Assembly (NCBI GenBank): GCA_963716475.1
Contig: OY970314.1
Location: 787,865 to 851,864, forward strand
Source: Candidatus Woesebacteria bacterium
Lineage (GTDB): Bacteria > Patescibacteriota > Microgenomatia > UBA8517
Length of the DNA: 64,000 bases
Direction of reading: 5' to 3'
The first letter of the stretch is position 1, and each line of letters begins with the position of its first letter. A program made the position numbers and the translations under genes. Under the pieces are notes generated by a model. That model made no database searches. It had not been told where the DNA came from and was given only the letters and a program-made list of their open reading frames with translations. Positions 1-59,977 of the stretch are shown piece after piece.

Positions 1-501
1 GGCCCTTCCGGAGAAACAATAACCATTTCTATCCACTCTGAACAAATTCCTGCCCAGAACGTTCAAATACCGGGAAGCGGCTCATGGAGCTATAGCCCGT
101 CCACCCCGCTTTCTGATGGACCCCATTCAATTACCATTTCCTGGTTGGATGCAACAGGAATCACAAGAACATTAACCAGAAATTTTGTGGTGCAGGCGGG
201 AGAGGTACCGGCTTTTGTTGCCACACCATCAGGTAAAACACCTATCCCGACCCCAACGGCAAGCCCGACACCAAAGACTTCTTCAAGTCCGACACCAACT
301 CCCACTCCAAGACCGACTGTAACCGCTACCCCTTCAGCTATACCCAGTGCAAGACCTTCGACTACCCCCAGGGTAACACCCACGATAGCACCCGAGTCCT
401 TACCCGCCACAGGCGATTTGACTCCCACTCTTCTGCTATCTATCATGGGAATTGCCATAATCGCTTTCGGTTTTTTTGTTTGGAAAATAGCCGATCGCTA
501 A
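1..501 (+). CDS. Partial (5'-truncated) surface protein. It has a PT-rich linker and a C-terminal LPATG-like sorting signal, then a hydrophobic segment and a basic tail (KIADR).
   Basis: Frame 1 is open from base 1 with no stop, and the ORF-track protein ends ...ESLPATGDLTPTLLLSIMGIAIIAFGFFVWKIADR. The LPxTG + TM + charged-tail architecture is typical of sortase substrates. Confidence 0.55.
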   Translation, partial: GPSGETITISIHSEQIPAQNVQIPGSGSWSYSPSTPLSDGPHSITISWLDATGITRTLTRNFVVQAGEVPAFVATPSGKTPIPTPTASPTPKTSSSPTPTPTPRPTVTATPSAIPSARPSTTPRVTPTIAPESLPATGDLTPTLLLSIMGIAIIAFGFFVWKIADR

Positions 502-505
502 GCTC

Positions 506-1537
506 ATGCCCAACCAAGATAAGTCTACCCAAAACCAAAATCCGGTAAGTCTGTCTGCGGACCCGCCGGTCGATCAAGCCACTACGCCACCCGTGGCGCC
601 AGTACTTTTCCCTCAATCGGATCTCCCACCGCTTTCACCCGAGTTTCAAAACCTGTCAAAAAACGATGTTCCCGCTATTCCTCCGGTTAACAGCGATGCC
701 GGTTCGGCTACTCCACCTGACATTTCCTCCGTAATTCCCAAAGCCAAGAAAAAGTTCGGAGGAGGAAAAATAATTGCAACAATTTTGGGTCTGGTTCTGC
801 TTGTTGGAGGAATCGGGGCAGGAATAATTTTGATTCAACAAAAACAACTCGTGCCGCAACAGGCATCAACAACCGGTACTATAAGAATCTGCCACAGTAC
901 CGGCTCTGGCGCCAATCCCTATATAGTTAATAATCCAGACAAAACAGGTGATGTTGGTGGGCATGATGGACACAATGGTCCTATCTGGTATAGTGGCATT
1001 GCCGGAGCTTGGGGAGATATTATTCCTCCTTTTAACTATGATAACGGAGGTCACTATAACGGCAAGAATTGGACCGACGAGGGACAAGCTTTTTACAACA
1101 ATGGCTGCAGTACACCAGCCCAATCACCAACAGCTTCACCGACAGTATTGCCAACGGCATTGCCGACAGCATCGCCAACGGTATCACCAATGGCAACAGC
1201 TTCACCAACTGAATCACCCACGGCGTCACCAATTTCGCCATCTTGTATACCAGTTAGAGCATATGATGATTATTGGGTTACCTTAACAAATGTACAGCTA
1301 TCTGCTTTAACGGCCGGTGACCTTGTCAACTTCTGCGTTAATGGATCTGCTACTTCCGGTAGTTTTGACAAGGCGCAATTCATGATTAATTCAACCATCG
1401 AACCTGAAACTACAAACAAGCGGCCGGGTTCAAGCGATTTTTGCCAGTCCTACACAATTTTATCAACCGACACAACCGTAAGTGTTAAGGCAAAAATCCA
1501 TCACTCGTCGGGTATCTGGGTGGGGGAAAATTTCTAG
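506..1537 (+). CDS. Type-II membrane-anchored surface protein (cassette gene A1). It has a proline-rich N-terminal tail, one TM, a variable Gly/His/Asn-rich middle domain, a PT linker and a conserved C-terminal domain.
   Basis: The 343-aa ORF shares its N-terminus with ORF 2278..3444 (MPNQDKSTQNQNPVSLSADPP...). A single hydrophobic stretch (IIATILGLVLLVGGIGAGIILI) follows a KKKFGGGK motif. The C-terminal about 110 aa are conserved with the paralog. Confidence 0.6.
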   Translation: MPNQDKSTQNQNPVSLSADPPVDQATTPPVAPVLFPQSDLPPLSPEFQNLSKNDVPAIPPVNSDAGSATPPDISSVIPKAKKKFGGGKIIATILGLVLLVGGIGAGIILIQQKQLVPQQASTTGTIRICHSTGSGANPYIVNNPDKTGDVGGHDGHNGPIWYSGIAGAWGDIIPPFNYDNGGHYNGKNWTDEGQAFYNNGCSTPAQSPTASPTVLPTALPTASPTVSPMATASPTESPTASPISPSCIPVRAYDDYWVTLTNVQLSALTAGDLVNFCVNGSATSGSFDKAQFMINSTIEPETTNKRPGSSDFCQSYTILSTDTTVSVKAKIHHSSGIWVGENF

Positions 1538-1539
1538 TT

Positions 1540-2157
1540 ATGAAAAACTTTTTAAAAGGTAAAATTGGAACAATAATAATATTATTTTTCACTGTGATTC
1601 TGGCAGGGGTGGCGGTCTTCACAGCTCTTAGACTTTATCAACTCCGTCAAGAACCCGTTGCACCCAATGTCCCGTCAAGCATCCCCCGTGCAGAAGAAGC
1701 AACTTCGTCACCGGCTGGGGCTTGTACTCTGACGTTTACCATCTCTTCAGCGACAGCGTCACCGACGGAATCTCCGATGGCGTCACCAACTGCGTCACCC
1801 ACAGCCTCGCCAACAGAATCTCCGACGGCGTCACCAACAACCTCATCAACCGTCACACCGACAGCAACACCGACTGTTACTTCCACTGCCACTCCGACCC
1901 TTACCACAAATCCTTCAGGTGCACCTAATTCCTGCGGGGGTACCTGTGGAAGTGATTTAAATTGCGGAAGCGGTTTGTACTGTTACCAGGGTTTCTGTAG
2001 GAATCCTTCCTGCCCAACCCAAAGTAGTTGTAGTTGTCCGAATGCGCCGGCACCAACATCACCCGCCCTTCCTGCTTCCGGTACTGACTGGCCGACAATT
2101 GTCGGAGCAGGTTTCGGACTGTTCATAATAATCGGATCACTCCTTTTGGCACTATAG
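1540..2157 (+). CDS. Small Cys-rich surface protein (cassette gene B1). It has an N-terminal signal/anchor, a PT linker, a Cys-rich module and a C-terminal LPASG motif followed by a hydrophobic tail.
   Basis: The 205-aa ORF begins 3 nt after A1. It starts MKNFLKGKIGTIIILFFTVILAGVAVFTAL..., contains NSCGGTCGSDLNCGSGLYCYQGFCRNPSCPTQSSCSCP, and ends LPASGTDWPTIVGAGFGLFIIIGSLLLAL. Confidence 0.6.
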   Translation: MKNFLKGKIGTIIILFFTVILAGVAVFTALRLYQLRQEPVAPNVPSSIPRAEEATSSPAGACTLTFTISSATASPTESPMASPTASPTASPTESPTASPTTSSTVTPTATPTVTSTATPTLTTNPSGAPNSCGGTCGSDLNCGSGLYCYQGFCRNPSCPTQSSCSCPNAPAPTSPALPASGTDWPTIVGAGFGLFIIIGSLLLAL

Positions 2158-2277
2158 ACCGGCCTGTGTAAATTTTTATCCAATCTTACTGAAATCTCGG
2201 TTTTATCGGCTGTGTCTGCAATGTGATATATTTAAACTGTTTCGTAAATCTGATTTTCTTATCAAATAAAACAAGAA

Positions 2278-3444
2278 ATGCCCAACCAAGATAAGTCTAC
2301 CCAAAACCAAAATCCGGTAAGTCTGTCTGCGGACCCGCCGGTCGATCAAGCCACTACGCCACCCGTGGCGCCAGTACTTTTCCCTCAATCGGATCTCCCA
2401 CCGCTTTCACCCGAGTTTCAAAATCTGTCAAAAAACGATGCTCCCGCTGTTCCTCCGGGTAACAGTGATTCCGGTTCGGCTACTCCACCTGACATTTCCT
2501 CCGTAATTCCCAAGGCCAAGAAAAAGTTCGGAGGAGGAAAAATAATTGCAACAATTTTAGTACTGGCTGTGATTATTGGAGGACTCGGGGCAGGGGTACT
2601 GCTAACTCAACAACAACAACTTTTCAAACAAAAGGCGATTGGAGCTTGTGGTGACGATTGCACAACAATAGGAGAGACAAAGTGCGTTACTGGTCAAACC
2701 CAGTCCTGGATTACAATTTGTTCGGTACCTCTCGCCGGTTGTAGTAATAATTACTGGAAAATAGATCATTACGTAGATAGTTGTTCTTCACCGCCAACCA
2801 GTCCACCCAACCCGGAAAAATGCAGTAACCCGGGCGGAGGCAACCCAGATGGTTGTTATAATCAGTATCCTGGTTATGAATATTGTTCTGTCACCAATTT
2901 CGGTAACGGTGGGCTAAACCATATGCGCTGTGACAGAACTGGCGCTAGCGGATTGTGTACAAATACGTATATAGATCCCTGTGATAACCCCTGTCTTGAC
3001 CGGCCATCAACCCCTAGTTATGTTAAACCACCTGAATGCTCGGGCGGAACACCAACGCCTACTGTTACACCGACATCATCGCCGACCTTGTCACCTACCG
3101 CTACGGCCTCGCCAACAGAATCGCCTACCGCATCGCCAATCGCACCCTCCTGTATTGCGGTTAAAGCATATGATGATGGCTGGACTGTCCTAACGAATGT
3201 GCAACTTTCTGCTCTAACGGCAGGTGACATCGTTAACTTCTGTGTTAATGGGTCCGCAACTTCTGGGACGTTCGACAAAGCTCAATTTAAAATCAATTCC
3301 ATTCTCGAACCCGAAACCACAAACAAACGACCTAGTACGGACGACTTTTGCCAGTCCTACACAATTTTATCAACAGACACAACTGTAAGTGTTAAGGCAA
3401 AGATTCATCACACAACACTGGGATGGTTCGGGGAAGAAATCTAA
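2278..3444 (+). CDS. Paralog A2 of the surface protein. Its N- and C-terminal modules match A1, but the central domain is a different, Cys-rich one.
   Basis: The 388-aa ORF has its first roughly 95 aa and last roughly 110 aa near-identical to ORF 506..1537. The central ACGDDCTTIGETKC...CDNPCLD region is unrelated to the A1 centre. Confidence 0.6.
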   Translation: MPNQDKSTQNQNPVSLSADPPVDQATTPPVAPVLFPQSDLPPLSPEFQNLSKNDAPAVPPGNSDSGSATPPDISSVIPKAKKKFGGGKIIATILVLAVIIGGLGAGVLLTQQQQLFKQKAIGACGDDCTTIGETKCVTGQTQSWITICSVPLAGCSNNYWKIDHYVDSCSSPPTSPPNPEKCSNPGGGNPDGCYNQYPGYEYCSVTNFGNGGLNHMRCDRTGASGLCTNTYIDPCDNPCLDRPSTPSYVKPPECSGGTPTPTVTPTSSPTLSPTATASPTESPTASPIAPSCIAVKAYDDGWTVLTNVQLSALTAGDIVNFCVNGSATSGTFDKAQFKINSILEPETTNKRPSTDDFCQSYTILSTDTTVSVKAKIHHTTLGWFGEEI

Positions 3445-3447
3445 AAA

Positions 3448-4017
3448 ATGAAAAACTTTTTAAAAGGTAAAATTGGAACAATAATAATATTATTTTTCAC
3501 CGTGATTCTGGCAGGGGTGGCGGTCTTCACAGCTCTTAGACTTTATCAACTCCGTCAAGAACCCGTTGCACCCAATGTCCCGTCAAGTATTCCCCGTGCA
3601 GAAGAAGCAACTTCGTCACCGGCTGGGGCTTGTACTCTGACGTTTACCATCTCTTCAGCGACAGCGTCACCGACAGAATCTCCGACAGCATCACCAACTA
3701 CCACACCGACAGTTACCCCAACTGTCACACCAACGGTAACTCCTACAGCCACTTCCACCGTGACTCCAACTTCTTCAGGCTCTCCTAATTCCTGCGGGGG
3801 TACCTGTGGAAGTGATTTAAATTGTGGAAACGGTTTGTACTGTTACCAGGGCTTCTGCAGGAATCCGTCATGCCCAACCCAAAGTAGTTGTAGTTGTCCG
3901 AATGCGCCGGCACCAACATCACCTGCCCTTCCTGCTTCCGGTACTGACTGGCCGACAATTGTCGGAGCAGGTTTCGGACTGTTCATAATAATCGGGTCAC
4001 TCCTTTTGGCACTTTAG
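3448..4017 (+). CDS. Paralog B2 of the small Cys-rich surface protein.
   Basis: The 189-aa ORF is about 95% identical to B1 at the DNA level at both ends. The PT linker differs: TPTVTPTVTPTVTP against SPTASPTESP. Confidence 0.6.
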   Translation: MKNFLKGKIGTIIILFFTVILAGVAVFTALRLYQLRQEPVAPNVPSSIPRAEEATSSPAGACTLTFTISSATASPTESPTASPTTTPTVTPTVTPTVTPTATSTVTPTSSGSPNSCGGTCGSDLNCGNGLYCYQGFCRNPSCPTQSSCSCPNAPAPTSPALPASGTDWPTIVGAGFGLFIIIGSLLLAL

Positions 4018-4082: not shown

Positions 4083-6527
4083 CTATCTCCATGAGGCAAC
4101 CCAGTAATAGCTTTTGTCCAGCCACAAAGGAACTTGAAGTCCTACCCAATGAGGATAAAAATAAACGAAAAGTGAAAAAGCGAGAACAAAAAACGGAAGT
4201 GCCAGCTTTGGATTCCGGCGCAAAACATACCCCGCAGCGATCGCCAAAAAAGGAATCGAGGGAAGATAGTGGTACAAAAACATAATCCTTGGTGAAACTG
4301 CCCAAGGTACAAAGAAAATTAAATAGGCAAAAACAACGAAAGCCAAATTTTTATTTTTCTCCAAAAATGAATAAATTAATGACAAAGCCACCGACGCCAG
4401 ACCAAACCAGAAAACCAGAGGATTCCCCATAGCATAGATTCTTGCAACCATTCCTCCCACTTCCTCACTTGTATAAAGATAAATCGGGCGCATAAGAAGC
4501 GGCCAGCTCCACCAGGGGGATGAATAGGGATGAGTAGCACGAAGGCCTGTGTGATACCACCACATCTGCTCCTGCATTCCCCACCAGATAGACAAATTGT
4601 GCCCCGTTAAAAACATCGGCAGATAAGTTAAAAGGTAAATAGTAATTGGTAAAAGCAAAAAATAAACAAACATTGGTAATCCAAACTTATTTTTACGTCT
4701 TAGCCAAAGAACAAAAATGATCGGGGTTACCCAAAGAGCCGACCATTTTGAGGCCATTGCAAGACCAAATGATAATGCCGACAAAAGATCTTTTTGTTTT
4801 AAGAATAGATAGATTGATAAAAGAGCAAAGAAAAGAATATAGCTGTCGTTCATTCCAATTCTACTCATTACAAGAGCAAGTCCGTCGAGGGAAAATACAG
4901 CCGCCGCCAGAAGCCCAACCGCTTCATCTTTGAAAAGTTCCTTTGCCAAAAGATACACAAGGAATACCGAACCCACCCCGAGGATCGCCCCCGGAATTCT
5001 CCAACCGAAAGAGTTTTCGCCAAAAACCAGCATTCCCAAAACCATTCCCAACTTCGCAAGCGGCGGATGGGTCCACTCGTAGGCAAAACCGGCGGGTGGC
5101 GTATTCCACCATTCCCAAGCCTTGGGATCACCGTGCAAAATGACCCGGGCAGTAAAAGCATGATAAACCTCATCGAAATAGTCATTCTTGGGAGACCACA
5201 AATCAAAAGTTCTGGTTGCAAAGGCAAACATTAATATCAAGATTAAGACAAGTCTTGCCCTTTGGGGGCTAAGTGAAAGCTTTGGCAACTTTTCCGGAGA
5301 CCCTGAAACCCCTCTCTTCTTCCAATGATTAACAAACCGGTTTACGATCAACAGCATCTTTCCCCATTCCGCTTTCAGACCACGGGCAATTGAATAAAAT
5401 ATAACAACCACAAGGCTAATATTTACTACCTCCAAAAGTTTAACTGTAAAGTCGGAAAAGATCTGCCTAAAGTTATCCGTGATCCAAACGTAAGAATAAT
5501 AAAGATTGGAAACATAAGTCAGGGAAAATCCAAGGTAGGGAATTAAAAATATCGGATTCTCAATAGCAATAATTGCCAGCGGGGCAAAAACAGGAAGTAA
5601 ATGCCTCTCGTGCATCCTCGTAAAAAAAATAAAACTGGCAGCGAAAACAAGTGCTGAAAGATAATAGGGTGCGTTCTTGCTTCTCCAAAGTTTAAAGGAC
5701 GCAAATAAAGCTAAAAGTAAAGTCAGCGTATAACCGCCAAGCTGGTAATAAATATTATCCGCTTTCCATAACCCGAACAGCCCCCAAAAGTTAAACGCAT
5801 TAACGGAAGTATAAGGGTACTGACTAAGTGATATTCCAAGCCGTTCATATATAAAAGAAATTAGGTTACCGTGATTCCAGAAGGGAATAAATAAACCAAT
5901 AAATACCAATAAACCAATAAGCAAATAAGCAATTATTTTTTGTACCTTCCACTTTTCTTTAAGCATCATGAATATAATCACAGGGAATATAAATGCGGTC
6001 TGGGGTTTAATCAAAGTCCCTACTGCCAAACTAACGGCCGACAAAATAAAACTAAAAGGCATTAGATACATTGAGAGAGTGGAGGTCAAAGCAGTCAGAG
6101 AATCGACCTGACCCCAAAGTGAGGAATTGGCAAGAATGGCAGGATTAAAAAGATAAATTCCGGCGCCAATAAGCGCCCACTTTTGACCTTTAGATCTTAC
6201 TAAAATTTTATAAATTAGATAACCTGTACCTATATCAGCAAGTACCGCAGGCAATTTATACAGTATCGTGTCGGGAACAATATTCCTGATTCTTCCGAGA
6301 AAATACAAAATATATAGATACCCAGGTAGGTAGTCACTCCAGGAATTATAAAAAACCTTAAATCCGTCTCTAACCAGGGCTGAACTCCAGCCAATAAAAG
6401 TCCCCTGATCAAGGTGTAACGTTCCGAAACCCGAGAAGAGAATTCTCACCATGAACCCGATGAGTAAAACATATACAATATTTGGTATGAAAAAGATTCT
6501 CTTTTTTGCCTTTGTGCTTTCTTTCAT
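4083..6527 (-). CDS. Large polytopic membrane glycosyltransferase that appears to fuse two GT-C modules. The C-terminal half is GT39 (PMT / protein O-mannosyltransferase-like).
   Basis: The 814-aa protein is hydrophobic with many TM segments. Its second half contains ...TRTFDLWSPKNDYFDEVYHAFTARVIL...WRIPGAILGVGSVFLVYLLAKELF, the FDEVYHA-type loop-1 motif of GT39/PMT enzymes. The start overlaps the divergent ORF 6451. Confidence 0.65.
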   Translation of the reverse strand: MKESTKAKKRIFFIPNIVYVLLIGFMVRILFSGFGTLHLDQGTFIGWSSALVRDGFKVFYNSWSDYLPGYLYILYFLGRIRNIVPDTILYKLPAVLADIGTGYLIYKILVRSKGQKWALIGAGIYLFNPAILANSSLWGQVDSLTALTSTLSMYLMPFSFILSAVSLAVGTLIKPQTAFIFPVIIFMMLKEKWKVQKIIAYLLIGLLVFIGLFIPFWNHGNLISFIYERLGISLSQYPYTSVNAFNFWGLFGLWKADNIYYQLGGYTLTLLLALFASFKLWRSKNAPYYLSALVFAASFIFFTRMHERHLLPVFAPLAIIAIENPIFLIPYLGFSLTYVSNLYYSYVWITDNFRQIFSDFTVKLLEVVNISLVVVIFYSIARGLKAEWGKMLLIVNRFVNHWKKRGVSGSPEKLPKLSLSPQRARLVLILILMFAFATRTFDLWSPKNDYFDEVYHAFTARVILHGDPKAWEWWNTPPAGFAYEWTHPPLAKLGMVLGMLVFGENSFGWRIPGAILGVGSVFLVYLLAKELFKDEAVGLLAAAVFSLDGLALVMSRIGMNDSYILFFALLSIYLFLKQKDLLSALSFGLAMASKWSALWVTPIIFVLWLRRKNKFGLPMFVYFLLLPITIYLLTYLPMFLTGHNLSIWWGMQEQMWWYHTGLRATHPYSSPWWSWPLLMRPIYLYTSEEVGGMVARIYAMGNPLVFWFGLASVALSLIYSFLEKNKNLAFVVFAYLIFFVPWAVSPRIMFLYHYLPSIPFLAIAAGYVLRRNPKLALPFFVLAFSLFVYFYPHWVGLQVPLWLDKSYYWVASWR

Positions 6528-7632
6528 TGTTTATTTTTTAACCTCAGCCGGAAAAACCCCTTTCGACTATTTTACTAGACTTTCGGATTCTTTTCTCCAA
6601 GGAAAAATTTACTTAACCGAAAAGCCCTCCTGGCTTACCGAGCTCATTCCTGCCGGACCGGGTAAATTCTATGTAGTTTACCCACCCATGCCCGCAATTT
6701 TATCTATGCCTTTTCGACTAATCTTCAAAGAAAATTTCCAACAGCAATACCTTGCCCACCTTCTGGGTGCGGGAATGGTGGCAATTACCATGCTCATATC
6801 GTGGAAGGTCAAAAAAAACATCAATCTCTTAATTTGGTCAGGACTTTTATCATCAATTGGAACAATAACTTGGTATTTGAGTGCGACCGGCTCTTCTTGG
6901 TTTTTGGGACAGGTAACCGCCGCGTTTTTTCTCACTCTAGCTATTTGGAAAGGAATTGAACGGAAAAACCCGTTTTTGGTTGGGGTTTTTTTGGGAGCCG
7001 CTTATTTATCGCGTTTACAAACAATACTTTCTTTACCACTTTTTTTATATCTTTTTTTCGACAAGAATTGGTTAAAAAAATATTTTTTCCTTTGTCTGGG
7101 AGTTTTACCGTTTATCCTTTTTAATTTTTATTACAACTTCATCCGATTCGGAACAATTTTTGATAAAGCCTATTATTTGATTCCCGGACTTCTGTCCGAA
7201 CCCTGGTTTTCAAAAGGGCTCTTTAACGCAGCTTATATTCCCAATAGTCTCAAGGCTATTTTTTGGTCTTTTCCGAGATTTTCAAGTAAATTCCCATATG
7301 TGACACCATCATGGGCCGGTCTTGCAATATGGATTACCACTCCCGCCTTCATTTACGCATTCCTTGCGAACATCAAAGAAAGGGTTGTAAAGTTTTCCTG
7401 GATTTCCATACTTCTGATATCACTTGTGATTTTCAGCCACGGGACAACTGGTTTTGCCCAATTTGGTTACCGATTCGCCGTAGACTTTTATCCGATTCTT
7501 GTATATCTGACAATAATGGGTGTCGCAAAAACCGGCCCAAAATGGCCACATTACCTGGTGTTGGTACTTGGCATTATTGTTAATCTATGGGGAGTTTTAT
7601 GGATAAACAAGTTTGGCTTCGTCGGATTTTAG
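6451..7632 (+). CDS. Polytopic integral membrane protein, possibly a GT-C-type glycosyltransferase or envelope polymer enzyme.
   Basis: The 393-aa protein has at least 10 predicted TM helices and sits inside the GT-C gene cluster. Alternative starts exist at 6460 and 6487. Confidence 0.4.
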   Translation: MNPMSKTYTIFGMKKILFFAFVLSFIVYFLTSAGKTPFDYFTRLSDSFLQGKIYLTEKPSWLTELIPAGPGKFYVVYPPMPAILSMPFRLIFKENFQQQYLAHLLGAGMVAITMLISWKVKKNINLLIWSGLLSSIGTITWYLSATGSSWFLGQVTAAFFLTLAIWKGIERKNPFLVGVFLGAAYLSRLQTILSLPLFLYLFFDKNWLKKYFFLCLGVLPFILFNFYYNFIRFGTIFDKAYYLIPGLLSEPWFSKGLFNAAYIPNSLKAIFWSFPRFSSKFPYVTPSWAGLAIWITTPAFIYAFLANIKERVVKFSWISILLISLVIFSHGTTGFAQFGYRFAVDFYPILVYLTIMGVAKTGPKWPHYLVLVLGIIVNLWGVLWINKFGFVGF

Positions 7633-9188
7633 CTAAACAAATTCGAATGGGTGGAATTTTAGGTAATGAAAAAGTTTTACTGGCTTGGTTTTTAAATAAA
7701 AAAACTTGGCAAAATATCGTTTTATATCTCATTCTTTTTCTTGCCTTTGCGGTCCGCATCTATCATCTTGGCACAAACCCACCAGAACTTTTTAGTGACG
7801 AAATAACCCAGGTTTTGTCGGCCAGAACCATTTTAGAAACTGGTCGTGATACTAATGGAAAACTAAATCTGTTTTTATACAATAAGATTAAACTCGGTAC
7901 ACCTATTTCCGGTTATTTATCCGCATTTTCGACGTACGTCCTCGGAAATAACAATTTTGCAGTCAGATTACCATCCGTTTTGGCAGGAACACTGGTGGTT
8001 TTCTTAATCTTTAAACTTAACCTTTTACTAACCAAAAATAAGCTGATATCTTTAATATCAGCACTTGTCTGTGCTTTGATTCCGTGGGCAATATATTTTA
8101 GCCGTATTGCCTGGGAACCAGCGTTTACAGTACCTTTTTTACTTGCTTCAATTTATATTTTCATAAACTCAATAAATAATAAATCCGATAAAGGAATTGT
8201 TGTCTCATATATCTTATTCGCAACTTCGGTTTACGCCTCAGACGCAGCAGAATTCTTGTCACCACTGTTCCTAATGTTACTGGGGATTATTTATTTTAAA
8301 AATATCTTGAACAATAAAAAAATTCACCTATTGGGCGGGCTTATTTTTGCGATCTTACTTGTTCCAATAATATTCGTTTCGTTAACCAACCCGTTAAAAA
8401 GTGAGCGAACAATCAAAATCTCCACTTTTGCAGAGGGTGTCAATTCACAAACATTAAGAACTTTCGCAGGTAATTATATTGACCATTTTACCTATAAATT
8501 TTTATTTACAAACGGCGATCCAAACTTGAGACACGGTACAGGCCAAGATGGGGTACTTTATTGGGTACTTTTGCCATTTATCCTTATTGGAACTATTTAT
8601 TTACTGACTCATATAAAAAATAAGGAGAACCAATTTCTTATCTTGTGGGTTCTGGCATTTCCTCTTGGCGGAGCGCTAACAAATGACGGTGTACCCCATG
8701 CTACGAGGACAATAATTGGCTATCCGGTTTTGATTCTAATTGCAGCACTAGGTTTAAAACAAATGTTAATCTATATTAAAAATGTATATGTACAAAAAAT
8801 ATTTGTTTTTATATTTCTTTTGATTCTCTCACTTGAGTTTGTAAAGTTTACCCAAAGCTATTTTATAAAATACCCCATCAATTCCCAGGGTTGGTGGGAC
8901 TACGGGACCAAAAATACTTTGACTTTCATTCAGAAAAACACACGAGGCGATGAAAGTTTATGTCTTCCAAATATAGAATATTGGCATGAGGATACTTACA
9001 CTAATTATTATTTGGGTACGAAAAACAATTATCAAATCACATTTGATGTAAACGATTCGAAATGTTTAGATTCTGATATTCTAGTACTACCAGCAGGTAC
9101 TAATCCGCCCCAAAACTATCACACAATCGATGTTGTCGACAATCTGCAGGGTCAAACAATCTGGAATGTCTATCGATCTGTGAATTGA
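7587..9188 (+). CDS. GT-C family glycosyltransferase (ArnT/PMT-like, GT39/83). The donor is probably a polyprenyl-phosphate sugar.
   Basis: A motif ...GTNPPELFSDEITQVLSARTILETGRD... follows TM1, then multi-TM. GGGGAG lies 4 nt upstream of ATG 7587, and there is an alternative ATG at 7647. Confidence 0.65.
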   Translation: MGSFMDKQVWLRRILAKQIRMGGILGNEKVLLAWFLNKKTWQNIVLYLILFLAFAVRIYHLGTNPPELFSDEITQVLSARTILETGRDTNGKLNLFLYNKIKLGTPISGYLSAFSTYVLGNNNFAVRLPSVLAGTLVVFLIFKLNLLLTKNKLISLISALVCALIPWAIYFSRIAWEPAFTVPFLLASIYIFINSINNKSDKGIVVSYILFATSVYASDAAEFLSPLFLMLLGIIYFKNILNNKKIHLLGGLIFAILLVPIIFVSLTNPLKSERTIKISTFAEGVNSQTLRTFAGNYIDHFTYKFLFTNGDPNLRHGTGQDGVLYWVLLPFILIGTIYLLTHIKNKENQFLILWVLAFPLGGALTNDGVPHATRTIIGYPVLILIAALGLKQMLIYIKNVYVQKIFVFIFLLILSLEFVKFTQSYFIKYPINSQGWWDYGTKNTLTFIQKNTRGDESLCLPNIEYWHEDTYTNYYLGTKNNYQITFDVNDSKCLDSDILVLPAGTNPPQNYHTIDVVDNLQGQTIWNVYRSVN

Positions 9189-10714
9189 TACACTGTGTAT
9201 GGACCACTTCTCAAAATCTTGGTAAATCTTGAGTCATTTTTGCCTATAGAATAATCAATCAGGTAATATCCAGTAGAATCTGAATTTTTATCGATATCTC
9301 TATTGATTTCGTAAACGTTTACAACTACATACCAGGCCGCCCAATCCAAAGCAAAGTTTTTAGGGTTCGTCTCATCACTACTTACGACAAACCTATTAAA
9401 TCCTTTTGAGCCAGAATCTTTGATAATAAAATCAATAGAGTTTTTAAGAAAATTATATTGAGTATCAGAATAAGTGCTCAGATGGCCGTTTGTAAAATTA
9501 TAGTTTTTGATAAAAATCTCATATCTGAAAACAAACACCGCCCAAAACACGGCAACTAGAATAGGTAGGGCTATAAATATCCTACCCTTTAGAATTGTTG
9601 AAATGTCGTTGGCAAAGATTCCCCATAGCAAAGCAAATGATGGCAAACTTATTAAAAAATATCTTGGTATCGGGGGAACGTTAGGTAACCTAACCAAAAC
9701 AAGAAAAAAGAGGGGGGAAATTGCCCAAAGAAAAATTGTTGCCCGTAGCATCTTTTTCTCTTTGCGTATAAATATTGCCAAGAAACTATAGACCAATACC
9801 AAAAAGTTCAAGAAAATAATTGGTAACCGAAAACTTGTTAACAACGCATTATCTTTCTCAAAATCGGTGTTTCCATATCCCAACTGGTACTCAAAACTAT
9901 TTCCAGACAACACCGATATCAAACCTATAGAAATAGTCTTAATTCTTGAAAAATAATCATCCCTTCCTTCAACCAGTTGGGTTTTAATGTTTTCATTATC
10001 ATTGAGTAGATAATTCTGAAGATTAAAGTTGTAAAAATATGGAACTGTTAATAACAGCGATGTGACTATACCAATAATCAAATATCTATTGATGAGCTTA
10101 AATTTGATAGATGCAAATAGAGAGACCGCACTAATCAAAACAAACGAAATCGAATGAACGTAAAGTTCAACCAAAAAAACCCAAGAAAAAATTGTCAATG
10201 CCAACCAAAATGAGTTGGGTTTTCGAAGAGTCATAAAAAACAACACCATAGAGATAGCAATAAGTGAGACGACTGCGGTCGGCTGATATATCATTCTGGA
10301 AAAAATGTACCACCAGGGGTGTGTGGCAAGCAGTAAACCTGCCACCAAACCTGCCACCTTAGAAAAATATTTTTGGCCTAGATATATTACAAGAACTACG
10401 CTAACCAAATTGAAAATTGCAATCATGTTTGACACTAAGAGAGGGTTTCTGCTTACAAGAAAGAATGGAGCATAAAAAAAGAACAGTGAAGGTCCCCAAG
10501 AAATGTTCCCCCAAGGACTTTTTTCGGCAAATTTTTGTGTATCAATTAATTTCCCATTATCTATATATTGGATAATCCTTGTAGCCAATCTCGGTTGGTC
10601 ATAACCAAACTCAATAGTGTCAAAATGTGACAATCTTAAAAATAGATAAATTGCACAAATTACCGTCGCTACAAAAAAGAACAAGTACTTTGTTACTGAA
10701 GATTTTTGAACCAT
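9170..10714 (-). CDS. GT-C family glycosyltransferase (ArnT/PMT-like) membrane protein.
   Basis: The 514-aa polytopic protein has an N-terminal TM followed by an extracytoplasmic loop, FGYDQPRLATRIIQYIDNGKL, with the same architecture as the neighbouring GT-C genes. Confidence 0.55.
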   Translation of the reverse strand: MVQKSSVTKYLFFFVATVICAIYLFLRLSHFDTIEFGYDQPRLATRIIQYIDNGKLIDTQKFAEKSPWGNISWGPSLFFFYAPFFLVSRNPLLVSNMIAIFNLVSVVLVIYLGQKYFSKVAGLVAGLLLATHPWWYIFSRMIYQPTAVVSLIAISMVLFFMTLRKPNSFWLALTIFSWVFLVELYVHSISFVLISAVSLFASIKFKLINRYLIIGIVTSLLLTVPYFYNFNLQNYLLNDNENIKTQLVEGRDDYFSRIKTISIGLISVLSGNSFEYQLGYGNTDFEKDNALLTSFRLPIIFLNFLVLVYSFLAIFIRKEKKMLRATIFLWAISPLFFLVLVRLPNVPPIPRYFLISLPSFALLWGIFANDISTILKGRIFIALPILVAVFWAVFVFRYEIFIKNYNFTNGHLSTYSDTQYNFLKNSIDFIIKDSGSKGFNRFVVSSDETNPKNFALDWAAWYVVVNVYEINRDIDKNSDSTGYYLIDYSIGKNDSRFTKILRSGPYTVYQFTDR

Positions 10715-11775
10715 TTATTAATTTCTTCCCATTTTCCGTTACCTAGTTTGGGTATTAAAACATATTGTTTGTCATACGTTAGCGAAATGGGTGGGTTTGC
10801 AAGAAGATCTGTAGATAGAACCCTCGAATTCATATTATTTCTGGATCCGAGAGCAGCCTTTGCCAGTGCTCCGATGGCGGTTGGATCTAAATCTGTTTCG
10901 ACTGATGCTTTAACCGCCCTGAGAATTCTATAATCTTTAATCGGATTGATAACTGTACCAAAAGAAAGAACTCTTTTACTTATCGCCGAAATTATTTTTT
11001 GCTGTCTCGCCGACCTTGCAAAATCAGTATTTTCTCCGTTATCTCCTTCGCGCGACCTGGCAAATTCAAGCGCCGTCGCCCCACCCATATGGATTAAGCC
11101 CTGGTCAAAATGTATAGTTTTATAGCGGCAGGCGAACGTCAGGTCACCACCACAGGCATCATTTTCCCTGCCGGCAATTGGATACTTGGTATCCGTAAAA
11201 CTATTTTCGACAGAGACATCAATCCCTCCGATAGTATCTATAATATCCTGAAACCCGGAAAAATCGATTACCATAGCATAGTCAACCGGCTGCCCCGTAA
11301 CCTCGGATGCAACTTGCTTAGCAAAGTTTAGGCCTCCTCCACGCTCAGGCTGTAAATTACCCCAGTAGTAGGCACTATTTATCTTGGCTCTGATTTCCGG
11401 TATCCAGATATCTCTAGGAACTGAGACCAATGTTATCGAGTGGTTTATCAAAGAAATCGAAGCAAAAATCATAGTGTCTGTCAGATCTCCTCCTTCGTGT
11501 CCCTTTCCCCCTATCCCTAGAATTAATACATTTACTCTTCCGTTTTCGGATTTAACTGCCGTGGCGTTGGAAAAAAGAAAGCTTTTAACCACCTCCTGAT
11601 ACCCTGTCACACCTGCACTTTTAAAAATTGCGTTCGCTGCAACAAATGGAAGAAGCAGTACCAGAGCCACAACTAAGACGATCCCGAACCAAACCGACGA
11701 TTTATGCCGTCGAGGCAAATCATGCCGTTGGGACACCTCCTTCGGGGTGATAGAATTGATTTGTTCTTTTTCCAT
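10693..11775 (-). CDS. LCP (LytR-CpsA-Psr) family cell-wall glycopolymer ligase.
   Basis: LCP-domain motifs are present: VLILGIGGKGHEGGDLTDTMIFASI...SVPRDIWIPEIRAKINSAYYWG...VDYAMVIDFSGFQDIIDTIGGIDV. The ORF track starts it at 11877; the internal Met at 11775 gives a short cytoplasmic tail plus TM and abuts the pcrA start. Confidence 0.8.
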   Translation of the reverse strand: MEKEQINSITPKEVSQRHDLPRRHKSSVWFGIVLVVALVLLLPFVAANAIFKSAGVTGYQEVVKSFLFSNATAVKSENGRVNVLILGIGGKGHEGGDLTDTMIFASISLINHSITLVSVPRDIWIPEIRAKINSAYYWGNLQPERGGGLNFAKQVASEVTGQPVDYAMVIDFSGFQDIIDTIGGIDVSVENSFTDTKYPIAGRENDACGGDLTFACRYKTIHFDQGLIHMGGATALEFARSREGDNGENTDFARSARQQKIISAISKRVLSFGTVINPIKDYRILRAVKASVETDLDPTAIGALAKAALGSRNNMNSRVLSTDLLANPPISLTYDKQYVLIPKLGNGKWEEINKWFKNLQ

Positions 11776-11776
11776 T

Positions 11777-13624
11777 ATGTCTATTCTATCCGATCTTAAC
11801 CCCGAACAAAAGGCTGCCGTAACATATAACGGTGGGCCTCTTTTGGTTTTAGCAGGCGCCGGGTCCGGAAAAACCAAAGTATTGACCCACCGCGTGGCCT
11901 ATTTTATTGAGCAGGGCTTAATCAAATCTGAAAACGCCCTTCTTTTAACCTTCACCAATAAAGCCGCAAACGAGATGAAGGAAAGAATTTCGGGTCTTAC
12001 CAAGGGAAATACTCCAATGACCGGAACTTTCCATTCTTTCTGTGCCAAGGTGCTTAGGATCGACGGAAGACACATTGGGATCCCCGTAAATTTTATAATA
12101 TATGATGAACAGGATCAGAAGGACGCGGTAAAGCAAATTCTTGAAGGAGCGGATATATCAACCGACCAGTACAACCCGGCGTCAATCTTAAACGGCATAA
12201 GCGAAGCCAAAAATCAAATGCTGACCCCCGAGGAATATAAAGATTTCGTCCGGGGTGAATGGCAGGAGGTTGTCGCCAGGGTTTACCCTGAATATGAAAA
12301 AATGCTCAAAGAAATCGGAGCACTGGATTTTGACGACCTTTTAATTAAAACTGTCGAGCTTTTCAAAAAAGTGCCGGAGGTTTTGGAAAAATGGCAAAGA
12401 ACACTTACTCACATTTTTGTCGATGAATGGCAAGATACAAATAAAATCCAGTACACGCTGACAAAACTTTTGGTCGGCAAACGTAAAAACATTACTGCGG
12501 TCGGGGATGCTTCCCAATCTATATACTCATGGCGCGGCGCGGACTTTAGGAATATTAATTATCTGATCCGCGATTACCCTGATATAAAAGTGCTTAATTT
12601 GGAGCAAAACTACCGCTCAACCCAAAATATTCTCGACGCCGCTAACCTGGTCATTTCTAAAAACACCACTCATCCGATTTTGAAACTTTGGACTCAAAAA
12701 GCAGCCGGAGCAAAAATCAAACTTTATGCTGCCAGAAACGGTTTCGACGAAGCGGATTTTGTGGTCGATGAAATCAACTGTCTGGGAAAATATTCCGACG
12801 TCGCGGTTTTATACCGCACCAATGCTCAGTCACGGGTACTCGAAGAGGCACTTCTTCACGCCGGAATTCCCTATGTATTGGTGGGTGGAGTAAGGTTTTA
12901 CGACCGGAAAGAAATTAAGGACGTAGTTTCTTACATTAAATTTCTGGTTAACCCCAAGGATTCCGTTTCCAAAAAAAGAATCGAAAAAATCGGCCTCAGG
13001 CGCTTTGAAAAATTGAAGGAAATGGCCTCGATCGATGGAATGACAACTCTTGATATTTTGGATGCCGTCATTCAAAAAACCGATTATCTGGCTCTTTTCC
13101 AAAAAGAATCCGAGGAAAACCTGGCCCGGCTGGAAAACCTGAAAGAACTAAGGTCTGTTGCAACGGAATTTCCCAACATTAATGATTTTTTGGAAAATGT
13201 AGCCTTGGTTGAAGCTGGTCCCAGAAATAAAACCAAAAATGCGGTAACACTCATGACCCTCCACGCCGCCAAGGGCCTTGAATTCCCGATTGTTTTTATT
13301 GTCGGAATGGAAGAAGGACTCTTTCCCCATTCCCGATCCTTAATGGATACAAATCAACTGGAAGAGGAGAGACGTCTTGCTTACGTTGGAATAACTCGGG
13401 CCAAAGAAATAATTTATCTAACTTACGCAAGTTCCCGTCTTTATTTCGGGGAAAGAATAAGTAACCCCCCCAGCCGGTTCATAATGGATATCCCCGAGAA
13501 CCTCATCGAAAATCTCGGATCAAATAGTTTTTCGAAACCGGATGGTCTAAAATTGGATTCAGCTGATGATATTAAAGGAACTTTCGACGATATCATTGAA
13601 AAATACCTGGAACATGATAACTAA
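11777..13624 (+). CDS. pcrA: ATP-dependent DNA helicase of the UvrD/PcrA family.
   Basis: Seen motifs are LNPEQKAAVTYNGGPLLVLAGAGSGKTKVLTHR (Walker A), DEWQDTN and LEQNYRST. The ORF-track start 11747 is upstream; MSILSDLNPEQ at 11777 matches the usual PcrA N-terminus. Confidence 0.85.
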   Translation: MSILSDLNPEQKAAVTYNGGPLLVLAGAGSGKTKVLTHRVAYFIEQGLIKSENALLLTFTNKAANEMKERISGLTKGNTPMTGTFHSFCAKVLRIDGRHIGIPVNFIIYDEQDQKDAVKQILEGADISTDQYNPASILNGISEAKNQMLTPEEYKDFVRGEWQEVVARVYPEYEKMLKEIGALDFDDLLIKTVELFKKVPEVLEKWQRTLTHIFVDEWQDTNKIQYTLTKLLVGKRKNITAVGDASQSIYSWRGADFRNINYLIRDYPDIKVLNLEQNYRSTQNILDAANLVISKNTTHPILKLWTQKAAGAKIKLYAARNGFDEADFVVDEINCLGKYSDVAVLYRTNAQSRVLEEALLHAGIPYVLVGGVRFYDRKEIKDVVSYIKFLVNPKDSVSKKRIEKIGLRRFEKLKEMASIDGMTTLDILDAVIQKTDYLALFQKESEENLARLENLKELRSVATEFPNINDFLENVALVEAGPRNKTKNAVTLMTLHAAKGLEFPIVFIVGMEEGLFPHSRSLMDTNQLEEERRLAYVGITRAKEIIYLTYASSRLYFGERISNPPSRFIMDIPENLIENLGSNSFSKPDGLKLDSADDIKGTFDDIIEKYLEHDN

Positions 13625-14564
13625 TAATTTGGACAGGATTTCCACACACCCTCTGCAAACCTCTGCATGGGCAGAGTTTAGACGAAGGTGGGGAAACGAA
13701 GTTCTCGAGACAAAATACGGAGTTCTAACTCTACACAAACTCCCCTTCACCAATTACAAAATTGCGATGTTTGAAAAGGGGCCGATTCCGACAAAAGCAA
13801 TGCTCGAGGACCTGAGAAAAATCGGAAAAGAAAATGATTTAGTCTTCATTAAGCTGGAGCCAAATTGCATCAAATCCGATGAATTATCCAAATTGGTCCA
13901 ATCGGAAGGTGCCATTGCCGGTCATAGGCTATTTACTCCAACAACTTTCTGGATCGATTTAACCCCAAGCGAAGAGGAATTGATGAAAAGTTTCTCCGGT
14001 AAGACCCGGTATAACATCCGCCTGGCCCAAAAGAAGGGTGTCATTGTTAAAGAAGACAATTCAGATAAGGCTTTTGATAAATATTTAGAATTAACCCGCG
14101 AAACAATCACCCGTCAGGGATTTTACGCACACACTGAAAAATATCACCGCCTGATGTGGAACGCCCTCAAAAAAGCCGGAATTGCACATCTCATGACAGC
14201 CACATATCAGGGTGAAATCATAACCACCTGGATAGTTTTTGCTTGGAAAAATTTTCTTTATTACCCGTACGGTGCCTCAACCGAAAAACACAAAGAAGTT
14301 ATGGCCAATAATTTGATTATGTGGGAGGCAATAAAATTCGGTAAAAAACTGGGGCTTGCCACATTCGATCTTTGGGGGAGAGAAGAGGGCAAAGGTTTTA
14401 CAAGATTCAAGGAAGGTTATAACCCCAAAGTAATTGAATTTTTGGGAACCTGGGACCTTGTAATTAATAAGCCGCTCTATGTACTCTACAAATTGGCGGA
14501 GTGGATCCGCTGGCCGACTCTCAAAATCGCCGCCACATTTGGTCTTTCCAAACACAGATTTTAA
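13614..14564 (+). CDS. FemAB-family aminoacyl-tRNA-dependent peptidyltransferase (peptidoglycan interpeptide-bridge formation).
   Basis: FemAB pattern ...TSAWAEFRRRWG...RYNIRLAQKKGV...YQGEIITTWIVFAWKNFLYYPYGAS...NNLIMWEAIKFGKKLGLATFDLWG. The ORF-track start is 13566; the internal Met is at 13614. Confidence 0.7.
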   Translation: MITNNLDRISTHPLQTSAWAEFRRRWGNEVLETKYGVLTLHKLPFTNYKIAMFEKGPIPTKAMLEDLRKIGKENDLVFIKLEPNCIKSDELSKLVQSEGAIAGHRLFTPTTFWIDLTPSEEELMKSFSGKTRYNIRLAQKKGVIVKEDNSDKAFDKYLELTRETITRQGFYAHTEKYHRLMWNALKKAGIAHLMTATYQGEIITTWIVFAWKNFLYYPYGASTEKHKEVMANNLIMWEAIKFGKKLGLATFDLWGREEGKGFTRFKEGYNPKVIEFLGTWDLVINKPLYVLYKLAEWIRWPTLKIAATFGLSKHRF

Positions 14565-14565
14565 A

Positions 14566-15420
14566 ATGGTAGATATTCGCCAATCTATTCACTATGCCAA
14601 TTATCTTAAGCGTGAAGGATGGATTGTCGAGAGAATCGGAGAGATTAACTACTTCATCAGAAAATTTCCATTGGCGGGTTCATTACTAAAAATACAAAGG
14701 CCTGAAGAAATCAACTACGACATAATTAACAAATTATACCGAAAATACCGCGTTTTTCAGGTTGTTCTCGAACCAAAACTAGCCTCCGTCATCAGCACCA
14801 CCGATAGTCATAATCCAATACTACAACACGGGTTTAAATTGTCAAAAAATCCTTATTTACCCTCAAAAACACTCCAAATTGACCTGACTCAGACACAAAA
14901 AGATATTTTTGAGCATTTTAAGAAGGATGCCCGATACGCGGTCAAGAGGGGAGAGGCCACAAATACTAAATCCTACTCGACCCCCGATGAAATTAGAAAG
15001 TGGCGCGAGGCGTGGAAAAAATCCGTTAAATATAATCGTTATGTACCGTCTGCCGAACAATTAATTAATTTACGCAAAAGTTTTCCCAGTAGTTACTCCC
15101 TTTTCCTTGCGTCGCACAATATATCTGGCAGAATTATAGGTGGAGTGCTTTTCACGCGATCTTTACACGATTTTGCTTACTACTGGTACGGATTTACAAA
15201 TGACGAGGGTCGTACTTCCCTCTCCCAGTACTCACTCCTCTATCAAGGAATACTATGGGCTAAAAAACTGGGCTGTAAGATTTTTGATTTCGAAGGAGTT
15301 TATGATCCCCGCTTCCCCAATAAGAGCTGGCTCGGTTTTTCCCATTTCAAGAAAAGTTTCGGTGGTTATGAAGTTCTCTATCCCGGCTGCTATACTAAGT
15401 TTATATTCCCTTTTATATGA
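14566..15420 (+). CDS. Second FemAB-family peptidyltransferase, tandem paralog.
   Basis: MVDIRQSIHYANYLKREGW...ARYAVKRGE...ISGRIIGGVLFTRSLHDFAYYWYGFTN...ILWAKKLGCKIFDFEGV. ATG 14566 lies 1 nt after the upstream stop. Confidence 0.7.
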   Translation: MVDIRQSIHYANYLKREGWIVERIGEINYFIRKFPLAGSLLKIQRPEEINYDIINKLYRKYRVFQVVLEPKLASVISTTDSHNPILQHGFKLSKNPYLPSKTLQIDLTQTQKDIFEHFKKDARYAVKRGEATNTKSYSTPDEIRKWREAWKKSVKYNRYVPSAEQLINLRKSFPSSYSLFLASHNISGRIIGGVLFTRSLHDFAYYWYGFTNDEGRTSLSQYSLLYQGILWAKKLGCKIFDFEGVYDPRFPNKSWLGFSHFKKSFGGYEVLYPGCYTKFIFPFI

Positions 15421-23648: not shown

Positions 23649-24590
23649 CTAGAGGAATTTGTAGTACTCAATCGTTTTTTGAAGACCTTCTTCTAAATTT
23701 ACTTTTGGCTCCCAACACAGAACCTTTTTAGCTTTGGTAATGTCCGGTTGCCTTCTCATGGGATCATCCTTTCTGAAAGTTCCGCTGTATTTAATTTGGG
23801 ATTTGGAGTCTGTAAGCTTAATAATTTTGTCAGCCAGTTCCTTTACTTTGTATTCCTCGGGGTTCCCTAAATTAAATATCTCACCCTTGGTACCATCAGA
23901 AAACATGGCTTTTACAATTCCTTCCACCATATCATCGACATAACAAAAGGACCGGGTCTGACTTCCGTCACCGTCGATACTTACAACATCGCCCGAAAGC
24001 GATTCGTTGATAAAATTTGAAACAACTCTCCCATCATCTTTTTGCATCCGTGGCCCATAGGTATTAAAAATTCTCACTATCCGCGCGTCCAAGTTGTATT
24101 TATGAATATAAACGTAAGTTGCGGCTTCGGCAAATCTTTTGCTTTCATCGTAACAGGAACGAGGTCCAAAAGTATTTACATTTCCAAAGTATGTCTCTTT
24201 TTGTGGATGCTCCTTAGGATCTCCATAAACTTCGGATGTCGAGGCAACGAGGACCTTGGAGGCGATCTTTTTTGCCAGTTCTAATATTTTTAATATACCC
24301 GTAGAATTGGCCATAAGTGTTTCTTCCGGATAATTTTGATAATCAACAGGTGAGGCCGGCGAAGCCAGATGAAAAATACAATCTAAACCCGAAGTGTCTA
24401 GATCAAGAGGTTTTGTAATATCGGCTTCGACAAATTCAAAATTGGGGTCACCCAAAAGGTGCTTAATATTTTCCTTTGTGCCAGTAAGAAGATTGTCAAG
24501 ACAGATAACTTTATAACCATTATCAACCAAAAAGTCGCAAAGGTGGGAGCCAATGAATCCCGCCCCCCCGGTAACCAAAACGCTTTGCAT
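23649..24590 (-). CDS. uxs: UDP-glucuronate decarboxylase (UDP-xylose synthase), an NAD-dependent SDR.
   Basis: MQSVLVTGGAGFIGSHLCD...ASTSEVYGDP...CYDESKRFAE...RIFNTYGPRM is near-canonical UXS. Confidence 0.85.
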   Translation of the reverse strand: MQSVLVTGGAGFIGSHLCDFLVDNGYKVICLDNLLTGTKENIKHLLGDPNFEFVEADITKPLDLDTSGLDCIFHLASPASPVDYQNYPEETLMANSTGILKILELAKKIASKVLVASTSEVYGDPKEHPQKETYFGNVNTFGPRSCYDESKRFAEAATYVYIHKYNLDARIVRIFNTYGPRMQKDDGRVVSNFINESLSGDVVSIDGDGSQTRSFCYVDDMVEGIVKAMFSDGTKGEIFNLGNPEEYKVKELADKIIKLTDSKSQIKYSGTFRKDDPMRRQPDITKAKKVLCWEPKVNLEEGLQKTIEYYKFL

Positions 24591-46046: not shown

Positions 46047-46192
46047 GTCATTAGTATTATCTCCGCAAAAATATTTATTTAACTGGTGCCAATTTTTGCT
46101 TCTAAAACTGTTTTCAAGTTTTACGTAAAAAATATTTTACTTCCCTTGCACGAAAACGTGAAATTTTCATACTAAATTTTCCCAAATATATA

Positions 46193-59953: not shown

Positions 59954-59977
59954 TTTATTTAACCTGATGTTGCGGGT

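Follow-up and report, generated by a model that had tools for sequence, protein, structure and literature searches.

Almost nothing is known of the cell envelope of the Candidate Phyla Radiation (CPR)/Patescibacteria, although these ultrasmall, host-dependent bacteria attach to their partners, and feed on them, through it. What, then, is a CPR bacterium with a genome of about 1 Mb doing with a cluster of large, polytopic membrane proteins? The question is raised by a stretch of 64,000 nucleotides (contig OY970314.1 of assembly GCA_963716475.1, positions 787,865 to 851,864; the whole of this stretch is called the window here) from a member of Candidatus Woesebacteria (Microgenomates, CPR/Patescibacteria), in which four such genes, A to D, adjoin one another and a fifth, E, lies apart from them (Table 1). 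We found that these genes are new, uncharacterised members of the known GT-C superfamily of glycosyltransferases. Members of this superfamily draw their sugar from a polyprenyl-phosphate carrier and attach it to the acceptor on the outside of the membrane, by means of an acidic residue in the loop that follows the first transmembrane (TM) segment. We consider it probable, if well short of certain, that the locus is conserved cell-envelope glycan machinery in which these enzymes assemble or decorate a wall glycan outside the cytoplasmic membrane.

The five open reading frames (ORFs) are present exactly where a preliminary description of this DNA had placed them (4083-6527, 6451-7632, 7587-9188, 9170-10714 and 24553-26163), and hydropathy gives each of them 7-14 hydrophobic segments. 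Homologues of B, C and E are 381, about 495-502 and 502 amino acids (aa) long, respectively, so the true starts of these three genes are probably at 6487, 7647 and 24655 and not where the frames open. Gene A has two modules, named A_N and A_C after the halves of the gene, and B, C, D and E have one each. Conserved homologues run to hundreds or thousands for A, B, C and E and to 32 for D; the close homologues are all in Candidatus Woesebacteria, Microgenomates or Patescibacteria assemblies. No further polytopic GT-C candidate was found within the window, where the remaining polytopic ORFs encode GT2, GT4 and UbiA proteins, a Wzy_C-like protein, YidC and a giant protein; the Wzy_C-like ORF (46612-47985) does not resemble any of the six modules at the profile level.

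By sequence and, for A and B, also by predicted structure, all six modules are GT-C, on evidence of differing strength. Residues 431-801 of A score above the Pfam cut-offs for PMT (46.2 bits), PMT_2 (56.8 bits) and PMT_4TMC (60.5 bits), the last of which is specific to GT39 and is confined to A_C, being missing from B, C, D and E. A_C also matches Pmt4 in sequence (9i5k, E=3e-5) and in fold (Foldseek, E=3e-13). Its 52.4 bits against NF058602, the NCBIfam equivalog for bacterial Pmt, fall far below the cut-off of 800, and A_C is best described from these scores as GT39-like without orthology to characterised Pmt. Gene C, with 43.7 bits, exceeds the PMT_2 cut-off of 26.1 bits and weakly matches the NCBIfam models for Agl23 and ArnT; at 23.6 bits it is below the cut-off of 567 for the ArnT equivalog PRK13279 and does not classify as GT83. 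D reaches 17.7 bits with PMT_2, under the cut-off, while 7 of its 32 homologues carry PF13231 and its family profile matches the ArnT structure 5ezm at 1.5e-4. PMT_2 is matched by 21 of 34 members of the E family. Neither D nor E has a match in NCBIfam, and B belongs to no Pfam family. C, D and, marginally, E thus resemble ArnT (GT83) and other PMT_2 enzymes, including the archaeal Agl23, through PMT_2; in contrast to the ArnT setting, a monoderm CPR cell has no lipid A, and nothing of the Arn pathway was seen beyond one UXS/ArnA-like short-chain dehydrogenase/reductase (SDR) nearby.

Searches of solved structures by sequence gave no match for B alone, for the B profile or for C alone, and no module of the window matched the Pfam models for GT53 (Emb), GT85 (AftA) or GT89 (AftB/C-type). 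Modelled with AF2, A and B form all-helical membrane bundles whose folds are similar to those of solved GT-C enzymes, and B and A_N resemble ALG12, ALG3, PIG-M and PimE. A_N itself has a single Pfam match, a sub-threshold one to PIG-U over residues 51-251 of A; its stand-alone homologues exceed the cut-offs for PMT_2, PIG-U or GT87. Because of that match and those of the stand-alone homologues, we assigned the PIG-U/ALG/PimE-like structural matches to A_N, which is accordingly predicted to be the PIG-U/ALG/PimE-like half of the protein. A_N and B differ from the known GT-C_B enzymes (ALG3/6/9/12, PIG-M, PimE/GT87) and from PIG-U in being bacterial, CPR-specific families; in addition, A_N is covalently joined to a GT-C_A (PMT) module and B is without any sequence-model match.

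Every family has an acidic residue after TM1. In A_N, D40 of the motif HLDQ is invariant, and WGQxD (138-142), K174 and H306-E307(-R308) are conserved as well; in A_C, F451-D452 is invariant and E453 at least 90% conserved (FDEV). B has D39 conserved to at least 90% and Y40 and R43 invariant in PFDYFTRL, D has D39 of YDQP conserved to at least 90%, and in E the G-D-E-M that follows TM1 is invariant (D47-E48), a SERPYPHY motif also being present. In C the post-TM1 motif SDEI was read from the single sequence. The basic N-termini and the basic linker between A_N and A_C place these acidic loops outside the membrane, if the positive-inside rule applies. The preliminary description had given every one of the proteins a DE or DQ loop after TM1, and this is so for A (HLDQ and FDEV), C (SDEI), D (YDQP) and E (GDEM) but not for B (PFDYF).

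It seems highly improbable that these ORFs do not encode glycosyltransferases at all but transporters, unrelated DUF proteins or inactive relatives such as PIG-U, which is a non-catalytic subunit with a GT-C fold. One could point to the lack of a Pfam family for B, to PIG-U, itself no transferase, as the only Pfam match of A_N, and to the scores of D and E under the PMT_2 cut-off; however, in all the families, A_N (D40) and B (D39) included, the Asp that follows TM1 varies little or not at all, and homologues of A_N, D and E exceed the cut-offs for PMT_2 or GT87. The earlier preference for GT-C over transporter or DUF families is therefore borne out by Pfam matches, by profile links and by the comparison of folds.

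How closely are the modules related to one another? When all were compared with all by BLAST and phmmer, only A_C and C were similar (1e-10). With hhalign, A_C was linked to A_N at 98.3% (E=1e-14), to C at 97.2%, to B and to E at 94% and to D at 81.7%; C and D were linked at 95%, and profile-profile links spanned 60-98% overall. A reading of the genes as recent paralogs was rejected, since BLAST and phmmer joined just A_C and C and the rest came together at the profile level alone. The modules are instead, as judged from these comparisons, anciently separated GT-C branches, each an orthologous group of its own. What had been called five GT-C paralogs of GT39/83-like type are thus five ORFs with six GT-C modules, since A has two; they are deeply diverged and connected mostly through profile-profile comparison, and the label GT39/83-like suits A_C, C and, weakly, D, but neither B, which is in no Pfam family, nor A_N, which is PIG-U/GT87/ALG-like.

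The chief new result, one that the preliminary description had missed, concerns gene E and the genes that accompany it. Among species-representative genomes we found 80 E loci (E identity 48-85%), all of them from Woesebacteria or Microgenomates if plainly mislabelled records are disregarded, and the order E, s110, GT4, UbiA is identical in 79 of the 79 loci with enough flanking sequence. A membrane GT2 gene lies upstream of E in most of them, and a UXS/ArnA-like SDR gene is present in 31 of the 80. The UbiA-family protein scores 248 bits against NF008978, the NCBIfam model for decaprenyl-phosphate phosphoribosyltransferase (equivalog cut-off 207), aligns end to end with the Mycobacterium tuberculosis enzyme (PDB 8j8j, E=1.2e-44) and shares with it the motif YLxNDVxDVxADRxHPTKxFRPxAxG; on this sequence evidence it is a homologue of Rv3806c/DPPR synthase. 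Its position near E lends indirect support to the use of a polyprenyl-phosphate-linked sugar by E. The WecA-like GT4 protein is a candidate for the primer-forming polyprenyl-phosphate sugar-1-phosphate transferase. The small protein s110, which is found between E and GT4 in 81 sequences, may be a flippase or an accessory subunit; a search of Pfam at E<=10 with s110 and two of its orthologues returned nothing meaningful. The membrane GT2 protein, for which no NCBIfam match and no PDB sequence match was obtained, is 90% identical to its orthologue in one relative, a level like that of GroEL, and its candidate roles are lipid-sugar synthase and processive synthase.

This arrangement recalls the three-component systems for extracytoplasmic addition of pentofuranose to Gram-negative O antigens, in which a polyprenyl-phosphoribose synthase is combined with a flippase and a GT-C enzyme (PMC11127046). 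In Citrobacter youngae these are the ORF15 synthase, the ORF14 MATE flippase and the GT136 enzyme ORF12 (Kelly et al. 2024; PMC11127046); CPR bacteria are not mentioned in that paper. As in those systems, a UbiA-family phosphoribosyltransferase is invariably linked to a GT-C protein with an ArnT/PMT_2-like signature, here E, and E is likened to their transferase through this linkage, E lying two genes ahead of the synthase in all 79 loci, and through that signature. There are differences: the synthase in the window has no fused phosphoribose phosphatase domain, the place of the flippase is taken by the 110-aa, 3-TM protein s110, which belongs to no family and is the sole candidate for that role, no MATE or SMR protein being present, and a WecA-like primer enzyme is an extra part of the cassette. 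Moreover, the cassette is a conserved core feature of a monoderm-type CPR host, whereas the O-antigen systems are serotype-variable additions. The UbiA score and catalytic motif, the invariant gene order and this precedent (PMC11127046) together support a link to pentofuranose, and we put the chance that E is a pentofuranosyltransferase at a little better than even.

Gene A poses a different question, that of why two GT-C modules should be joined in one protein. The joint is a basic linker at about residues 382-420, presumably cytoplasmic. An exhaustive search for A returned 8,935 relatives, many of them with both modules at full length and a size of about 770-910 aa or more, and stand-alone versions of either half also occur; in one more distant relative, L085, a PIG-U-like gene adjoins a PMT gene without being fused to it. 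Fusion in many genomes with separate but adjacent genes in another is a classic signature of functionally coupled partners. In comparison with Pmt proteins (GT39: yeast Pmt1/Pmt2/Pmt4 and actinobacterial Pmt), A has no MIR domain and its PMT module is fused behind a different GT-C module. A is a natural fusion of both structural classes of GT-C enzyme (GT-C_B-GT-C_A) and could be of use in structural studies of the way in which such enzymes act together. No account of tandem or dual GT-C proteins turned up in a limited search of the literature, which is weak evidence for novelty.

The position of A next to genes for P/T/S-rich proteins raises the possibility that its acceptor is a protein. Five consecutive ORFs with P/T/S-rich linkers lie directly beside A, and the PT-rich linkers said earlier to be numerous in the window are confined to these five, within positions 1-4017. 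Three of them end in LPATG (the partial ORF ending at 501) or LPASG (1540-2157 and 3448-4017) followed by a hydrophobic tail, and in the LPATG protein by a basic tail too; these C-termini look like sortase sorting signals. A search of the window for a sortase gene came up empty. A two-gene P/T/S-rich unit has been duplicated in tandem (506-2157 and 2278-4017; 1324 of 1808 aligned nucleotides identical), the N-termini being near-identical over the first ~54 aa of the large proteins and the first ~78 aa of the small ones. The PMT-like A, possibly with C and D, might therefore move hexose from polyprenyl-phosphate-hexose to Ser/Thr residues in the linkers of these sortase-signal-like surface proteins, as actinobacterial Pmt and streptococcal GT-C enzymes do. 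The three PMT domains that score above cut-off in A_C, PMT_4TMC among them, and its FDEV motif fit this idea, as does the presence of a homologous LPSSG protein beside A in two related assemblies, L002 and L003, and there is a precedent in monoderm streptococci, where GT-C-dependent O-glycosylation of Ser/Thr-rich disordered regions includes an LCP protein (PMC12041528). Yet the PT-rich neighbour is absent from beside A in L084, the score of A_C against the protein O-mannosyltransferase equivalog is more than seven hundred bits short, the window has yielded no synthase for polyprenyl-phosphate-mannose or -glucose, and PMT_2/PMT-like enzymes modify lipids and polysaccharides too. O-glycosylation would also leave the LCP linkage and the E cassette unexplained. 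We regard it as a doubtful account of the locus, though one with a real chance of being right; it concerns gene A only and can coexist with the assembly of a wall polymer.

That a wall polymer is involved is suggested by the genes around A to D. The LCP (LytR-CpsA-Psr) gene is directly upstream of D, is co-directional with it and overlaps it by 22 nucleotides, and beyond it are two FemAB-family genes, probably for peptidoglycan cross-bridge aminoacyl transferases to judge from their family matches. B and C are also co-directional, while A (start 6527) and B (start 6487) are head to head with a 41-nucleotide coding overlap at 6487-6527, which means that the promoter of each must sit within the other gene; the same overlap is annotated in L002 and L003. 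The order A-B-C-LCP-UvrD-FemAB-FemAB is repeated in relatives without D, and A-B-C-D-LCP is repeated in one relative that has D. The presence or absence of D in otherwise syntenic relatives makes it a lineage-specific addition beside the wall-polymer ligase. The co-directional overlap of LCP and D and the conserved order A-B-C-(D)-LCP-UvrD-FemAB support a link to the wall. The proximity of the GT-C genes to LCP (10693-11877) and FemAB-like (13566-15420) genes, on which the preliminary description had remarked, is confirmed, and its picture of a heavy investment in extracytoplasmic glycosylation gains from the block being kept in synteny across Woesebacteria next to LCP and FemAB.

A homologue of D occurs in a different cluster in the more distant L085 (GCA_964535655.1, CAZHTP010000002.1, 6780-17551), together with three more GT-C genes, the separate PIG-U-like and PMT genes among them, a methyltransferase, a sugar nucleotidyltransferase and Rml-type epimerases/dehydratases. 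This arrangement suggests a modular, shuffled glycan locus.

The genes of the block differ in how fast they diverge. In a relative in which GroEL is 89% identical, E is 75%, A 69%, B 67%, C 46% and LCP 44% identical, and D is absent. C shares 46-53% identity with its orthologues and B 59-76% with its 120 best-matching homologues, which are from Woesebacteria/Microgenomates; for B and E jointly the range over their 120 best-matching homologues is 59-86%. C, D and LCP are the fastest-evolving genes of the block, and GC content is lowest in C (0.35) and D (0.343), against 0.42 for the window. Low GC, fast divergence and the patchy occurrence of D would fit a component of the system that is variable, surface-exposed or specific for the acceptor.

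The acceptor could also be a membrane lipid. The GT-C enzymes would then decorate glycolipids or lipoglycans of the membrane, as PimE, ArnT and the enzymes of lipomannan and lipoarabinomannan (LAM) synthesis do, in place of proteins or a polymer bound to peptidoglycan. Lipid-linked acceptors are the substrates of ALG12, ALG3, PIG-M and PimE, to which B and A_N are similar; C and D are ArnT-like; and CPR bacteria are thought to scavenge lipids, which they may remodel. However, LCP enzymes act on polyprenyl-diphosphate-linked polymers that are bound for peptidoglycan, and the LCP gene here is co-directional with D; the WecA-like primer enzyme inside the E cassette also argues against lipid decoration, and no genes for the biosynthesis of a lipid anchor were seen in the window. 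We consider decoration of lipids unlikely, more so than O-glycosylation by A.

From the fold, the motifs, the fusion, the synteny and the identity of UbiA we propose a pathway of donor synthesis, flipping, transfer by E and ligation for the wall glycan. The WecA-like enzyme would prime a glycan on polyprenyl phosphate, and UbiA would make polyprenyl-phospho-ribofuranose-5-phosphate from phosphoribosyl pyrophosphate on the inner face of the membrane. The lipid-linked pentose would then be dephosphorylated, possibly epimerised, and flipped. Outside the membrane, E would transfer the pentofuranose to the WecA-primed glycan or to some other surface acceptor, and A, B, C and D would contribute more sugars from lipid carriers; in A, the two modules might act in succession or as a built-in heterodimer like Pmt1-Pmt2. 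LCP would finally ligate the finished polymer to peptidoglycan.

Such a pathway would have a counterpart in the assembly of mycobacterial arabinogalactan and LAM, which uses WecA, Rv3806c, DprE1/E2, Rv3789, AftA-D, EmbA-C and Lcp1. The window likewise has a WecA-like enzyme, an Rv3806c homologue, several GT-C proteins and an LCP ligase within 25 kb. The occurrence of GT-C genes beside a wall-polymer ligase, together with an enzyme for a lipid-linked pentose donor, suggests by analogy a mode of sugar addition outside the membrane somewhat like that of mycobacterial wall synthesis.

Several observations weigh against this account of the locus. A polyprenyl-phosphate-hexose synthase of the GtrB/Ppm1/ArnC type, which could serve A to D, was not found in the window. 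The pentose branch is likewise incomplete there: no phosphoribose 5-phosphatase is among the annotated ORFs and UbiA has no fused PRP domain, and neither a DprE1/E2-type or ORF13-type epimerase nor a recognisable MATE, SMR or GtrA flippase occurs in the window. E scores 24.5-24.6 bits with PMT_2, just under the cut-off, and its profile found no match by sequence among solved GT-C structures. Gene order is broadly kept in these small genomes and the block also contains UvrD, AddA, RmuC and MetRS, so adjacency is weaker evidence of a shared function than it would be in other bacteria. A, C and D evolve at rates far from those of B and E, and a single shared pathway may not hold.

A genome of about 1 Mb has retained six GT-C modules, one of which, E, is hard-wired to a polyprenyl-phosphoribose synthase, and these genes are concrete candidates for the construction of a wall glycopolymer or a glycoprotein coat. 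If the pathway is broadly as we propose, the logic of the recently defined pentofuranose three-component systems and of mycobacterial arabinan would be extended to a distant phylum. A bolder and quite tentative proposal, which we would not expect to hold in full, is that Woesebacteria, and perhaps Microgenomates more widely, build a ribo-, arabino- or xylofuranose glycan linked to peptidoglycan or to surface proteins by an actinobacteria-like core pathway dependent on polyprenyl-phosphate-pentofuranose, using previously undescribed parts: B as a GT-C family without a sequence model, A as a covalent GT-C_B-GT-C_A 'heterodimer', and, where a flippase is usual, a new 3-TM protein. Literature searches that combined CPR/Patescibacteria and GT-C, GT39/GT83/ArnT, O-mannosyltransferase or decaprenyl-phosphoribose yielded nothing specific, and glycosyltransferases go unmentioned in two papers on Patescibacteria.

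Table 1. Positions in the window of the GT-C genes, their modules and the associated genes
Feature	Coordinates	Strand	Description
Gene A	4083-6527	-	814 aa; tandem fusion of two GT-C modules
A_N	5373-6527	-	residues 1-385; PIG-U/GT87/ALG-like GT-C
A_C	4083-5270	-	residues 420-814; PMT/GT39-like GT-C with GT39-type C-terminal 4-TM region
Gene B	6487-7632	+	381 aa; ORF opens at 6451 (393 aa)
Gene C	7647-9188	+	~513 aa; ORF opens at 7587 (533 aa)
Gene D	9170-10714	-	514 aa
Gene E	24655-26163	+	502 aa; ORF opens at 24553 (536 aa)
s110	26216-26548	+	110 aa; 3 TM segments; conserved LPPxxPLFYG motif
WecA/MraY-family Glycos_transf_4 (GT4)	26557-27648	+	Pfam 76.5 bits; NCBIfam WecA 98 bits, below equivalog cut-off
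UbiA-family polyprenyl-phosphate 5-phosphoribosyltransferase	27600-28580	+	326 aa
Membrane GT2 (Glyco_trans_2_3)	22053-23543	+	two N-terminal and two C-terminal TM segments
Extended SDR, UXS/ArnA-C-terminus/RmlB-like sugar-nucleotide dehydratase/decarboxylase	23649-24590	-	divergent from E
LCP	10693-11877	-	LytR_cpsA_psr Pfam 106 bits (cut-off 24.6); TIGR00350 89 bits (cut-off 62.3)
Two FemAB-family genes	13566-14564 and 14479-15420	+	Pfam and NCBIfam matches
Five consecutive ORFs with P/T/S-rich linkers	partial, ending 501; 506-1537; 1540-2157; 2278-3444; 3448-4017	+	directly beside A

Elsewhere in the window, a gene for an 877-aa DUF4012 protein adjoins that for the Wzy_C (O-antigen ligase/polymerase-like) membrane protein at 43413-47985, and these two proteins may be part of the same envelope-glycan system, although neither resembles the GT-C modules in profile comparison. 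The genes dnaA and dnaN at 50156-52910, that is, at 50-53 kb, put the window near the origin of replication; the cumulative GC skew has its minimum at about 48-52 kb, YidC, Jag (KH-R3H) and possibly rnpA/rpmH lie upstream of dnaA/dnaN, and the region at 50156-52910 is probably the chromosomal replication origin. At 37563-38627 the Sua5/YrdC (TsaC) and TsaE domains of t6A tRNA modification are found in one ORF, which adjoins TsaD (38609-39646). The segment at 53915-63611 encodes a 2012-aa protein with a C-terminal M23 peptidase domain, followed by a TraG/VirB4-like P-loop ATPase sequence and a PrgI-like protein, and from its gene content looks like a monoderm-type type IV secretion or conjugation-like module. 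The ATPase sequence is split across the overlapping ORFs 59978-60634 and 60618-61802, which reflects either a frameshift or a true two-gene layout.

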